Of a DNA stretch of 53,345 nt, positions 1 through 45,688 are shown in pieces. The stretch's first letter is position 1; each line of letters starts with the position of its first letter. The DNA comes from Escherichia coli. Its GTDB lineage: Bacteria; Pseudomonadota; Gammaproteobacteria; Enterobacterales; Enterobacteriaceae. Under the pieces are notes generated by a model. The model saw only the letters and a program-made list of their open reading frames with translations, was not told the origin of the DNA and searched no databases. The position numbers were made by a program, and so were the translations under genes. The DNA lies in assembly GCF_003334405.1 (NCBI RefSeq), contig NZ_QOWM01000021.1; one strand, 5' to 3'.

Positions 1-93
1 CCGCCGGGAGCGGATTTGAACGTTGCGAAGCAACGGCCCGGAGGGTGGCGGGCAGGACGCCCGCCATAAACTGCCAGGCATCAAATTAAGCAG

Positions 94-121
94 AAGGCCA
101 TCCTGACGGATGGCCTTTTTG
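94..121 (+). terminator. rRNA-operon distal (T2-type) intrinsic terminator; bases 1-121 are the 3' flank of an rrn operon
   Basis: Hairpin GGCCATCC-tgac-GGATGGCC (96-115) followed by TTTTT (116-120). Bases 1-121 match from memory the rrnB T1-T2 spacer/T2 sequence carried in expression vectors (ccgccgggagcggatttgaacgttgcgaagcaacggcccggagggtggcgggcaggacgcccgccataaactgccaggcatcaaattaagcagaaggccatcctgacggatggccttttt). Confidence 0.75.
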
Positions 122-140
122 CATTGGCGCAGAAAAAAAT

Positions 141-176
141 GCCGGATGCGACGCTGGCGCGTCTTATCCAGCCTAC
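141..176. repeat. REP (repetitive extragenic palindromic) element
   Basis: gccggatgcgacgctggcgcgtcttatccagcctac matches the REP/PU consensus family seen repeatedly in this window. Confidence 0.5.
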
Positions 177-182
177 TCTTGC

Positions 183-710
183 TTATCCGTTCTGCTTTTG
201 CATCCACTCCACCACAAAATCAGCCAGCCCCTCAACATCATTAATATCCAGTAATGCGACATCAAGATTAAGCGGCACATCACTGGCTACAGCAATAACA
301 TGCCTGTCTATCACTAATTCTTCAGGTCGATGTCCGGCTCCATCGCGAAACAGCACAATCTTTGCGATCTCTTCATGCTTAAACCCTTCGACCAGAATCA
401 AATCCAGCTTTGAGGTATCCATTCGACTTGCGAGAAACTGTAGATCCAGCTCTTCTTCGTCTGGTGTTTCCGTCATCAAGGCCCATCGTTGCTGGCTGGC
501 AACGATGGTTTGTGCCGCGCCAGCCTTGCGCAGCTCATAGCTATCTTTGCCTGGCTTATCAACATCCATATCATGGTGCGTATGCTTAATCAGCCCTGGA
601 CGGATCCCTCTGGCGCATAATGCCGGGATCAGTTTTTTCAAAAGCGTAGTTTTTCCGGTACCACTCCACGCGGCAAAGGCGAGTAACGGTATCATCGTTT
701 TTCCTGCCAT
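183..710 (-). CDS. mobB: Molybdopterin-guanine dinucleotide biosynthesis adapter protein MobB
   Basis: ORF translation has P-loop AWSGTGKTT and the MobB-like sequence [41 protein letters not shown]. Start may be the internal ATG at 695 (MIPLL), which would overlap the mobA stop. Confidence 0.9.
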
Positions 711-9029: not shown

Positions 9030-9175
9030 GATTCGCCTGAACATGCCTTTTTTCGTAAGTAAGCAACATAAGCTGTCACGTTTTGTGATGGCTATTAGAA
9101 ATTCCTATGCAACAACTGAAAAAAAATTACAAAAAGTGCTTTCTGAACTGAACAAAAAAGAGTAAAGTTAGTCGC

Positions 9176-9284
9176 GTAGGGTACAGAGGTAAGATGTTCT
9201 ATCTTTCAGACCTTTTACTTCACGTAATCGGATTTGGCTGAATATTTTAGCCGCCCCAGTCAGTAATGACTGGGGCGTTTTTTA
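9176..9284 (+). ncRNA. spf: Spot 42 small RNA
   Basis: gtagggtacagaggtaagatgttctatctttcagaccttttacttcacgtaatcggatttggctgaatattttagccgccccagtcagtaatgactggggcgttttttta matches the remembered 109-nt Spot 42 sequence, including the terminal hairpin CCCCAGTCAgtaaTGACTGGGG plus U-tract. Confidence 0.9.
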
Positions 9285-10312: not shown

Positions 10313-10556
10313 ATAGAGCGAGGACGCTAACAGGAACAATGACTCAGGATGAGGGTCAGGAGCGCCAGGAGGCGAAGACAGAGGATTGTCAGGAAGACAA
10401 ACGTCCGGAGACGTAATTAAACGGAAATGGAATCAACACGGATTGTTCCGGCTAAAGGAAAAACAGGGTGTGTTGGCGGCCTGCAAGGATTGTAAGACCC
10501 GTTAAGGGTTATGAGTCAGGAAAAAAGGCGACAGAGTAATCTGTCGCCTTTTTTCT
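10313..10556 (+). ncRNA. csrC: CsrC small RNA (CsrA-sequestering)
   Basis: About 244 nt starting atagagcgaggacgctaacaggaacaatgactcaggatgagggtcaggagcgccaggagg..., with about 14 GGA motifs (many as CAGGA), ending in hairpin GGCGACAGagtaatCTGTCGCC plus TTTTTT; lies between engB and yihI as expected. Confidence 0.85.
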
Positions 10557-10623
10557 TTGCTTGCTTTCTGTTAGATTCCGCCGCAAATCTATACTGAATA
10601 AAACGGCTAAAAGACGAACCATT

Positions 10624-41610: not shown

Positions 41611-44600
41611 TTACACCTTTTCCACATTCACAAGGAAGGACTTAAACTCCGGCGTCTGCGTGTTCGCATCACCAACGAATGGCGTTAAAGTATTGGCAAT
41701 AAAGCCTTTTTTAGCTACGCCTTCATAGCCCCAGTGAATCGGAATACCGATGGTATCGATATCTTTGCCGTTCGCTTTCAGCGTGCGAATACGTTTGGTC
41801 ACCACCGCTTTGGCTTTGATATAGCCACGGTTGGAGGAGACTTTCACGGTATCGCCCTGGGCAATGCCAAGTTTATTCGCCAGCGACTCCCCGATTTCCA
41901 CAAACTGCTCTGGCTGCAAAATCGCGTTCAACAGCGCGTGTTTGGTCCAGTAGTGGAAGTGCTCGGTCAGACGATAGGTGGTTCCGACATACGGGAACTT
42001 ATCGGCTTTACCCAATGCTTCGGCGTCGTCTTTAAAGATACGTGCAGCCGGGTTCGAGATAACGTTTGGATGCAGCGGGTTAGTTCCCAGCGGCGTTTCA
42101 AACGGCTCGTAGTGTTCCGGGAACGGACCTTCCGCCATCTTATCGAGGGCAAACAGACGCCCCATGCCTTCCTGCTGCATGATAAACGGCCCGACGCCGC
42201 TACCCGGAGGCGCTGCGCTGTAGTCCGGAATATCCCAGCCGGTCCACTTAGTGCCGTCCCATTTCAGCAACTGACGCTTCGGATCCCACGGGTTACCCTG
42301 CGGATCTGCGGAGGCGCGGTTATACAGAATGCGGCGGTTAAGCGGCCATGCCCATGCCCAGCCCAGCGTGTTACCGAGGCCAGACGGATCGGCGTTATCA
42401 CGGCGTGCCATCTGGTTGCCTTCCGGCGTCCAGCTACCGGCGAAAATCCAGCAGCCACAGGAGGTTGTACCGTCATCGCGCAATTGGGCGAACGAACTAA
42501 GTTGTTGGCCTTTCTTGACGATAACCGCACCGGTTGCCGGATCGGTAATATCGGCCAGCGCCTTACCGTTGCTCTCCATCGCCACTTCTTCTGAAGATGG
42601 CTCATGCGGAATGGCGTAGTTCCATGTCATGTTCAGCACCTGGTCCGGGTTCGCGCCACCCTGTTCGGCATACATCTTGCGCAAGCGCAGGAAGATACCG
42701 GAGAGGATCTCGCCGTCAGTCAGCGCAATCCCCGGGGCGTCCGCACCTTTCCAGTGCCACTGTAACCAGCGACCTGAGTTAACGATAGAACCGTTCTCTT
42801 CCGCGAAGCAGGTCGATGGCAGACGGAACACTTCGGTCTGGATCTTCGACGAGTCAACTTCGTTCAGCTCACCGTGGTTCTGCCAGAAGTTAGAGGTTTC
42901 AGTGTTCAGTGGGTCGATGGTGACGAGGAACTTCAGTTTCGACAGACAACCGATCACTTTGTTTTTGTTCGGGAATGAGGCAACAGGGTTAAAGCCCTGG
43001 CAGATATAGCCATTGACCTTGCCCTCTTTCATCATCTCGAAGTATTGCAGGACGTCGTAGCCTTTATCCCACTTCGGCAACCAGTCAAAGCCCCAGCTAT
43101 TTTCCGCCGTCGCTTTATCACCAAAGAAGGCCTTCATCATAGAGACGAAGAATTTCGGGTAGTTGCCCCAGTAGTTTACCTGGCCTTCCAGCAGCGGTTT
43201 TGGCGTGTTGGCGGTAAGGTAGGTTTGCAGATCGGTCTGCTTCTCGCTTGGCAGCGTCATGTAACCTGGCAGGCTCTGCGACAGCAGCCCCAGGTCCGTC
43301 AGCCCCTGAATATTGGAGTGACCGCGCAGGGCGTTAACGCCGCCGCCTGCCATCCCCATATTGCCGAGCAGCAGCTGGATCATCGCCATCGTACGAATGT
43401 TTTGCGCACCAACGGAGTGTTGCGTCCAGCCGAGGGCATACAGGAACGAGGCAGTTTTATCGTGAGCACTGGTTTCTGCGATGTATTCGCAGACTTTCAG
43501 GAACGCGTCTTTTGGCGTACCACAGATGTTTTCAACCACATCTGGCGTGTAGCGGGAAACGTGCTGTTTCAGCAAGTTCCACACGCAGCGCGGATGTTGC
43601 AGCGTGGTATCGCGTTTGGCGAAGCCGTTTTCGTCCAGTTCATAAGTCCAGGAGGATTTATCGTACTTGCGTTTTTCCGCGTCGTAGCCGGTGAACAGGC
43701 CATCTTCAAAGCCGTAATCCTCACGCACGATCAGGCTGGCGTTGGTATAGGCTTCGGTGTATTCGCGGTTGAATTTTTCATTGTTCAGCAGGTACAGCAA
43801 TACGCCTGACAGGAAAGCAATGTCAGTACCGGAACGAATAGGGGCATAGTAGTCAGCTACCGCCGCCGTACGCGTAAAGCGAGGATCGATCACAATCAGC
43901 TTCGCGCCGTTGTGAATTTTGGCTTCCATCGCCCAGCGGAACCCGACCGGGTGAGCTTCAGCGGCGTTACCGCCCATCACCACGACGAGGTTGGCGTTCT
44001 TGATGTCGACCCAGTGGTTGGTCATCGCACCGCGACCAAATGTTGGAGCAAGACTTGCTACCGTTGGTCCGTGTCAGACACGCGCCTGGTTGTCGACCGC
44101 GAGCATACCCAGCGCGCGGGAGAATTTTTGCGTTAAATAGCCGGTTTCGTTACTCGACGCGGAAGCACACAGCATCCCGGTGGAGAGCCAGCGGTTAACA
44201 GTCACGCCTTCGGCGTTTTGCGCAATGTAGTTAGCATCGCGGTCTTCTTTCATCAGTTTGGCGATGCGATCAAACGCCTCTTCCCAACTGATTTGCTGCC
44301 ATTTATCAGAACCTGGCGCACGGTATTCCGGAAACTTCAGACGGCTTTCGGAGTGGATGAAATCCACCAGGCCAGCGCCTTTCGGACAAAGTGCACCGCG
44401 GTTGACCGGGTGATCCGGATCGCCTTCGATATGGAAGATAGATGCTTTGGCGTTTTTTGCTCCGTCACCGAGGCTGTACATCAACAGCCCACAGCCTACG
44501 GAACAATAGGTGCAGGTATTACGGGTTTCGCGGGTGCGCAGCAGTTTATACTGCCGGGTTTCCGCGAGTGCTACGCTGGGTGCAAAACCCAGTGCCGCTG

Positions 44601-44661
44601 CCGTGGTGCCTGCCATACCGCCAGCGCAGATCTTAAAGAACTGCCTTCTGCTGACCTGCAT
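41611..44661 (-). CDS. fdoG: Formate dehydrogenase-O catalytic subunit (selenocysteine-containing; in-frame UGA at 44074-44076)
   Basis: Two ORF-track pieces (44074-44661, 195 aa, and 41611-44025) are in the same frame across a single TGA; N-terminus has Tat signal MQVSRRQFFKICAGG; the junction reads ...AVDNQARV-U-HGPTVASLAPTFGRG; total 1016 codons. Confidence 0.9.
44025..44073 (-). other. Putative SECIS element directing Sec insertion at the fdoG UGA
   Basis: Immediately 3' of the UGA the mRNA reads CACGGACCAACGGUAGCAAGUCUUGCUCCAACA, containing a hairpin (GCAAG...CUUGC), analogous to the fdhF SECIS placement. Confidence 0.5.
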
Positions 44662-44854
44662 GGATTGCTCCTTGTTTCGACATTGTCACGTCCCATTTAC
44701 ATTCGCTTGCTGCGTGTGCAGGGAGTGGGAGTTATTTTTCTTTGCGGAAGGGGCCGCAAAGGTCCAGAATTGGCTCAATTTCCCTCCATCCAGGAAGGGT
44801 TTGTAACAGAATACCATAATGTTGGTGTGTGTGTTCTTATCTGGTTAAGAGAAA

Positions 44855-45688
44855 GTGAAAAAAACACAGCGAAAAGAAATCGAAAATGTGACAAATATCA
44901 CAGGTGTTCGTCAAATTGAGTTATGGCGGCGTGATGATTTACAACACCCACGGTTAGATGAGGTCGCGGAAGAAGTTCCCGTTGCGCTGGTCTACAACGG
45001 CATTTCGCATGTGGTGATGATGGCGTCGCCCAAAGACCTTGAGTACTTTGCGCTCGGTTTTTCGCTTTCCGAGGGGATTATCGAAAGTCCGCGCGATATC
45101 TTCGGCATGGATGTCGTTCCTTCCTGTAATGGTCTTGAAGTACAAATTGAGCTTTCCAGCCGCCGCTTTATGGGGTTGAAGGAGCGCCGCCGGGCGCTGG
45201 CGGGACGTACGGGCTGTGGCGTATGCGGCGTGGAGCAACTTAATGACATCGGAAAACCGGTGCAGCCGCTACCGTTCACCCAGACGTTTGATCTCAACAA
45301 ACTGGATGATGCATTACGTCATCTCAACGATTTTCAGCCAGTGGGGCAACTGACTGGTTGTACTCACGCCGCTGCCTGGATGTTGCCATCTGGCGAACTG
45401 GTCGGCGGGCATGAAGACGTGGGTCGCCATGTGGCGCTGGACAAACTGTTAGGCCGCCGGTCACAAGAAGGGGAAAGCTGGCAGCAAGGTGCGGTACTGG
45501 TTTCCAGTCGTGCCAGTTATGAAATGGTGCAAAAGTCGGCGATGTGCGGCGTAGAGATTTTGTTTGCGGTGTCTGCCGCGACCACGCTTGCTGTAGAAGT
45601 GGCTGAGCGCTGTAATCTGACACTGGTAGGTTTTTGTAAACCGGGTCGGGCAACGGTTTATACCCATCCGCAGCGTTTGAGCAATTAA
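44855..45688 (+). CDS. fdhD: Sulfurtransferase FdhD (formate dehydrogenase maturation)
   Basis: 277-aa ORF, GTG start; conserved [11 protein letters not shown] cysteine motif. Confidence 0.95.

Follow-up and report, generated by a model that had tools for sequence, protein, structure and literature searches.

The fdoGHI locus and its in-frame TGA codon

The window analyzed in this work is a 53,345-nt stretch of an Escherichia coli contig (NZ_QOWM01000021.1). It carries the genes for the three subunits of formate dehydrogenase-O (FDH-O) together with two accessory genes, arranged as follows:

39138..40067, minus strand: fdhE, accessory protein (NF002925, 604 bits, cut-off 426)
40064..40699, minus strand: fdoI, cytochrome b556 gamma subunit, which tells FDH-O from FDH-N (NF007924 and NF007558)
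40696..41598, minus strand: fdoH, iron-sulfur beta subunit (TIGR01582, 478.7 bits, cut-off 334.7; K-12 annotation)
41611..44661, minus strand: fdoG, catalytic alpha subunit of FDH-O (translation; identity to the K-12 CDS; TIGR01553; 1KQF chain A)
44855..45688, plus strand: fdhD, divergent accessory sulfurtransferase (TIGR00129, 340 bits, cut-off 140.9; K-12 annotation)

In E. coli K-12 MG1655 and in many other strains, one annotated CDS shows 100% identity to the 3051-nt stretch of the alpha subunit gene, whose product matched the model TIGR01553 over profile positions 1-1009 of 1009 (1574.6 bits, cut-off 814.2). RefSeq/PGAP annotates the gene as one CDS under the label "fdnG / formate dehydrogenase-N subunit alpha", a name that follows from TIGR01553 being an equivalog model for both paralogues. 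This label was ruled out by the gene order and by the gamma subunit. In K-12 the fdoG locus has fdhD, divergently transcribed, on one side and fdoH, fdoI and fdhE downstream, and the window encodes these same neighbours, each scoring above its own NCBIfam cut-off; the true fdnGHI operon sits elsewhere, adjoining yddG. Furthermore, the gamma subunit passed the FDH-O cytochrome b556 model NF007924 (453.3 bits vs. a cut-off of 341) but fell short of NF007558, the model of the gamma subunit of FDH-N (243.6 bits vs. a cut-off of 339), the gamma subunits of the two enzymes being different NCBIfam equivalogs. Together, the K-12 identity, the synteny and the gamma-subunit models identify the gene as fdoG, in agreement with a sequence-only reading of this DNA that had assigned it to the catalytic subunit of FDH-O. 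Each of the three formate dehydrogenases of E. coli requires the divergent fdhD (PMC6239281).

Translation of the minus strand from 44661 to 41611 gave 1016 codons with an ATG start, a TAA end and a sole internal stop at codon 196, a TGA at 44076..44074 followed by C (UGAC). A mechanical list of open reading frames cuts fdoG at this codon into a 195-aa frame (44074..44661) and an 804-aa frame (41611..44025), the latter beginning at the first ATG after the TGA, 48 nt downstream of it. The sequence-only reading had described the two frames as contiguous across a single TGA, which the translation confirmed. It had also warned that a naive annotation would call two genes or a pseudogene; this concern holds for the mechanical list, but not for the current RefSeq record with its single CDS. 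The window contained five pairs of long open stretches flanking one stop, most of them adjacent genes sharing a frame; such a pair is therefore not specific by itself, and we dropped this pattern as a signal.

The features of fdoG that are considered below are these:

44632..44652, minus strand: Tat (twin-arginine) motif S-R-R-Q-F-F-K at residues 4-10, in the signal peptide of FdoG (translation)
44074..44076, minus strand: UGA codon 196, almost certainly read as selenocysteine (sequence; aligned to X196, the selenocysteine of 1KQF FdnG)
44021..44079, minus strand: full SECIS with lower stem, apical stem-loop and conserved 3' tail (RF01989, SECIS_3)
44045..44062, minus strand: minimal apical hairpin, GG-U-AGCAA-GUC-UUGCU-CC (fold; fdhF positions; apical helix pairing)
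44009..44079, minus strand: 71-nt tract identical in fdoG and fdnG, from -3 to +67 relative to the U of the UGA (pairwise comparison)

The UGA codon is aligned with the selenocysteine of FdnG

A search of solved structures, in which the query was the translated FdoG with Cys put in at the stop, gave FdnG as the best match (PDB 1KQF chain A, 1902 bits, residues 1-1015). The alignment over residues 1-1015 was free of gaps and placed the UGA opposite the crystallographic selenocysteine X196, which in 1KQF FdnG lies in the context AVDNQARV-U-HGPTVASLAPTFG; the FdoG peptide at codon 196 reads ...ARV-U-HGPTVASLAPTFGR. In E. coli fdnG the TGA also occupies codon 196 and in fdhF it occupies codon 140, both genes encoding ARV-U-HGP and both having a C after the TGA. 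The alignment to FdnG and FdhF that had been suggested as a check of the read-through thus puts the UGA on the selenocysteine of FdnG, and FdhF shares the V-U-H-G-P context.

Residues His197, Arg446 and Cys50/53/57/92 are present in FdoG. From the FdnG structure, we take Sec196 to be the ligand of molybdenum, Arg446 to be catalytic and the four cysteines to bind a [4Fe-4S] cluster. The N-terminus of FdoG is near-identical to that of FdnG in 1KQF, and a hydrophobic stretch with A-L-A at its end follows the Tat motif. Peptides of this kind are established as Tat signals, and FdoG is expected to use it as such. A selenocysteine ligand is used by the catalytic subunits of all three E. coli formate dehydrogenases (PMC6239281), and this residue has been described as a ligand of the Mo bis-MGD cofactor (PMC6239281, PMC8124441).

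A SECIS element within the coding sequence of fdoG

The Rfam model SECIS_3 (RF01989) matched 44021..44079 over its full length (model positions 1-59 of 59) with 84.3 bits, a gathering score of 63 and E = 5e-20, a score that is not fully independent evidence since close relatives underlie the model, which also takes in the UGA. The UGA corresponded to model positions 4-6 and the frame was open on both sides. Membership in SECIS_2 (RF01988) was ruled out, at 28.1 bits vs. a gathering score of 70. The element lies within the coding sequence and is translated too, as V-U-H-G-P-T-V-A-S-L-A-P-T-F-G-R-G-A-M-T.

Numbering from the U of the UGA, the apical hairpin begins 11 nt past this codon with G15 and G16, followed by a bulged U17 (44060) and a 5-bp stem, while G23 (44054) and U24 (44053) are bases of the apical loop and belong to the Ser codon AGU; six or seven pairs form in the apical stem-loop. 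According to published work, the minimal SECIS consists of a 17-nt upper stem-loop located 11 nt from the UGA, in which U17, G23 and U24 are essential (PMC8659212), and the fdoG hairpin conforms to these rules. It also resembles the SECIS of fdhF, the gene of FDH-H and the bacterial reference, with which it shares the UGAC, the 11-nt spacer, G15-G16, the bulged U17, the loop bases G23-U24 and the V-U-H-G-P peptide. In contrast to fdhF, where the stem above the bulge has four pairs and the predicted loop four nucleotides (GGUC), that of fdoG has five pairs and a loop of three nucleotides (GUC). The lower-stem sequences of the two elements also differ, and FdhF, unlike FdoG, is cytoplasmic, has 715 aa and lacks a Tat signal.

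Although the apical helix of fdoG followed the SECIS_3 consensus, the lower stem deviated from it: in the Rfam consensus register positions 8-48 and 12-44 were non-canonical, and in the minimum-energy fold the E. coli lower stem was shifted by one relative to that register, with G47 bulged. The lower stem was reported to be dispensable (PMC8659212), and a weaker, shifted lower stem fits this report.

The sequence-only reading had placed a hairpin immediately 3' of the TGA and proposed to fold this region in search of a SECIS-like stem-loop. In a 57-nt fold a stem-loop did form just 3' of the TGA, with a minimum free energy of -14.6 kcal/mol, and with the SECIS_3 match it can be recognized as SECIS-type. 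However, its stability alone proves little, as 73 of 200 dinucleotide shuffles were as stable or better (z = -0.22), and folding energy was dropped as discriminating evidence.

The geometry of the element was more informative. A motif defined as UGA, 11 nt, GGU, G23-U24 and six pairs occurred once on both strands of the window, with an expectation of 0.02 occurrences per first-order Markov resample; any match to it was found in 6 of 300 resamples. The peptide H-G-P-T-V-A-S-L-A-P can be encoded in 1,179,648 synonymous ways, of which only 0.5-0.6% gave the motif, and three of the six apical pairs were forced by the peptide alone, so that part of the hairpin structure of fdoG stems from coding constraint. 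From these two results, the protein and the RNA are a joint solution, in which the choice among synonymous codons is non-random.

Homologues with a selenocysteine or a cysteine codon

We compared fdoG with 15 diverged homologues from a collection of plasmids and chromids, with DNA identities between 94% and 67%. They came from Salmonella, Proteus, Burkholderia, Caballeronia, Variovorax, Pseudomonas, Sinorhizobium, Ensifer, Roseomonas, Paracoccus, Azospirillum, Pseudosulfitobacter and an E. coli IncF plasmid. Twelve of the 15, which span the alpha-, beta- and gammaproteobacteria, had a TGA with C after it at the aligned position, and all 12 scored 78-84.3 bits with SECIS_3; U17, G23 and U24 were invariant across the TGA-bearing homologues.

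The remaining three carried a cysteine codon and fell below the SECIS_3 threshold of 63. The genes of E. coli pCFSAN004180G (TGT) and Azospirillum sp. TSH58 (TGC) scored 44.7-44.8 bits and a more distant Cys-type gene of Pseudosulfitobacter 18.5 bits, a drop that is due in part to the absence of the UGA that the model includes. The first two belong to the same FdnG/FdoG enzyme family and encode active-site peptides near-identical to that of FdoG (HGPTVAALAP and HGPTVSALAS); in contrast to fdoG, they have TGT or TGC for TGA, lack G23-U24 and have lost the apical pairing. Because the peptide is kept nearly unchanged, these loci serve as natural negative controls.

When scored on the 10 distinct sequences with a TGA, the Rfam structure was paired at 92.5% overall, with 98.6% in the apical helix and 87.8% in the lower stem, whereas sliding the 3' partners by 1-3 columns as a control left only 26-50% of the cells paired. 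Three of the seven apical pairs had changed on both sides in this set (G-C/A-U, G-C/U-G and A-U/C-G). One of these covariations joins two amino acid replacements, Ala to Ser with Ala to Gly, preserving the pair 22-32, a coupled change for which RNA pairing is the only explanation.

Alternative readings of the internal stop

We considered whether a near-cognate tRNA (Trp or Cys) might read the UGA without SelB, the hairpin being a side effect of the conserved protein sequence. The apical pairs dictated by the peptide are in line with this proposal, as is the C after the UGA, since UGAC is a leaky stop context. Nevertheless, an effect of the peptide would be expected to leave the hairpin in the Cys-type homologues, which encode near-identical residues without the loop bases and the helix; it also sits badly with the small fraction of synonymous encodings that yield the motif and with the paired Ala replacements that keep a base pair, and the residue aligned in 1KQF is selenocysteine. 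We regard SelB-independent read-through as highly improbable.

Two further readings deserve hardly any credence. The first is that fdoG represents two genes, one for a 195-aa N-terminal Fe-S protein ending at the TGA and another for an 804-aa protein starting from the ATG at 44025. Such an ATG does exist close behind the TGA, and under selenium starvation termination at the UGA would be expected, so a truncated by-product may occur. However, homology to the single-chain FdnG runs unbroken over the TGA, the TIGR01553 match covers the whole protein, the 16 codons from the TGA to the ATG are 100% conserved, and the ATG itself lies within the conserved 3' tail of the SECIS, corresponding to Met212 of the mature enzyme. 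The second, that the TGA is a genuine nonsense mutation in an fdoG pseudogene or a sequencing error, draws on the splitting of the gene by the mechanical ORF caller and on the unremarkable energy of the hairpin, but is effectively refuted by the presence of fdoG, over 80% or more of its length, in all 5426 complete E. coli genomes searched, by an identity of 99% or more over the 71 nt with the TGA in 5433 of the 5434 E. coli records that matched, by the TGA that fdnG, fdhF and the 12 homologues of three proteobacterial classes share at this codon, and by the full homology of both halves to a functional, crystallized enzyme.

All three alternatives are thus contradicted by the conservation of the TGA in the alpha-, beta- and gammaproteobacteria, by the unbroken homology, and by the contrast between the hairpins of the Sec- and Cys-type genes.

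Decoding of codon 196

The in-frame UGA at codon 196 of fdoG is, judging from the comparisons above, almost certainly recoded as selenocysteine by means of the SECIS. The sequence-only reading had interpreted the split frame in the same way, and its interpretation is borne out by the alignment with the selenocysteine of FdnG, by the SECIS_3 match and the geometry of the element, by covariation, and by the loss of the element in Cys-type homologues. Decoding of UGA through a SECIS, dependent on SelB, and the presence of Sec196 in FdoG have been established for about three decades.

According to published work, the SECIS located 11 nt downstream of the UGA would hold SelB with GTP and Sec-tRNA(Sec), SelB touching U17 in the bulge and G23 and U24 in the loop. 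Competing with release factor 2 (RF2), SelB would then bring Sec-tRNA(Sec) to the A site, after which the ribosome would melt the hairpin and translate it as H-G-P-T-V-A-S-L-A-P. Sec196 would become the protein ligand of molybdenum in the bis-MGD cofactor, and the Tat signal peptide would send the folded FdoG, accompanied by FdoH, to the periplasmic side of the membrane, with FdoI anchoring the complex there. For FdoG, the binding of SelB, the incorporation of selenium, the ligation of the metal and the export are inferred from this published work, which for SelB binding and Sec insertion concerns fdhF and fdnG. The window contained no tRNA gene, and hence no tRNA(Sec), and no sel gene was found in the annotated context, which implies that this machinery is encoded elsewhere in the genome, as we assume from the organism.

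The selenocysteine codon and the SECIS of fdoG are textbook biology, with a single CDS already in RefSeq and annotation in all 5426 complete E. coli genomes searched, and nothing in them is novel. The case has value only as a quality check, in which true recoding is distinguished both from a pseudogene and from a gene that is split. The criteria that served well for this purpose were the geometry of the motif, the covariance-model score and the comparison of Sec- and Cys-type genes, whereas the presence of a stable hairpin was a poor criterion.

A 71-nt tract shared with fdnG

The paralogue fdnG shares with fdoG the UGA at codon 196, the local peptide, the Tat signal motif and the 71-nt tract around the UGA, and differs from it in its locus (yddG-fdnGHI vs. 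fdhD/fdoGHI-fdhE). The two enzymes also differ in their reported regulation, FDH-N being nitrate-induced and anaerobic and FDH-O being expressed at a low level and also under aerobic conditions (PMC6239281). Overall, fdoG and fdnG were 77% identical as proteins and 74.9% identical as DNA, and the 71-nt tract was the only exact run of at least 30 nt in the part of the two genes that could be compared position by position. Its first 60 nt were identical also in the Salmonella and Proteus homologues examined.

It is conceivable, though we consider it unlikely, that this identity reflects more than the binding of SelB, such as repeated gene conversion between fdoG and fdnG, or a further constraint on the 3' tail at the RNA level, which could involve the spacing to the mRNA entry channel of the ribosome or regulation by SelB occupancy. 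Ordinary purifying selection, acting on a highly conserved active-site peptide that uses preferred codons and on the SECIS, explains the tract equally well. The tract extends about 20 nt past the SECIS hairpin.

Homologues of fdoG and their annotation

Some E. coli strains carry, on conjugative IncF plasmids, a third FdnG-like gene with a DNA identity of about 71%. In the copy of plasmid pCFSAN004180G the position of the selenocysteine codon is occupied by a cysteine codon (TGT), and the SECIS, the hairpin element that lies 3' of the UGA in the selenoprotein genes, is decayed, scoring 44.7 bits.

NZ_CP012500.1 147236-150286: FdnG-like gene of pCFSAN004180G

In E. coli RefSeq records the chromosomal fdoG (41611-44661) is called "fdnG / formate dehydrogenase-N subunit alpha" by PGAP, whose equivalog model covers both paralogues without telling them apart; the adjacent fdoH and fdoI are correctly named in these records. 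In several plasmid and chromid records an fdnG/fdoG homologue carries the TGA and a good SECIS, yet the gene listing over the locus is "none", in a PLSDB gene table that is itself incomplete; one such record still has 2229 annotated features.

CP063167.1 933222-933945: unlisted TGA-bearing homologue in Variovorax paradoxus

These unlisted loci fit the idea that such genes were missed or flagged as pseudogenes, a reading that the incompleteness of the table leaves unproven.

Strain background

A segment of 438 nt with yiiE, present in the MG1655 assembly (positions 14209-14646 of the comparison sequence L001), is absent from the window at 38453-38511, leaving yiiF alone at this junction. When the window is aligned with MG1655, the blocks flanking the missing segment share 59 nt of the window (38453-38511), an overlap that suggests a repeat at the junction. 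Just 64 E. coli records match the yiiE-less junction at 99% or more; together with the difference from MG1655, this result led us to conclude that the window comes from a non-K-12 strain of E. coli. Despite this difference, its fdoG is identical to that of K-12.

The fdoG leader

An Rfam search gave a match over the whole length of RF02778, the FdoG-1 5' UTR thermometer, with 36.4 bits (E = 7.5e-7), below the gathering score of 50.

44632-44868 (-): fdoG 5' UTR and fdhD-fdoG intergenic region, sub-threshold RF02778 match

The predicted fold of this region has an energy of -59.9 kcal/mol (z = -1.49). It may be that the fdoG leader of E. coli is homologous to the RF02778 thermosensor but has diverged from it.

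Other elements of the window

The molybdenum cofactor that FdoG requires is in its guanine-dinucleotide form, which MobA and MobB produce. The corresponding genes lie about 40 kb from fdoG, within the same window; this is the usual K-12 gene order and implies no functional link.

About 1-700 (-): mobA and mobB

Spot 42, CsrC, ES222, STnc370 and three copies of the REP-type naRNA4 were all above their Rfam gathering thresholds, as is expected for the polA-glnALG-typA region of E. coli.

9166-9284, 10313-10566, 17495-17602, 19492-19560, 12810-12887 and 53158-53320 (+): these small RNAs and repeats, jointly
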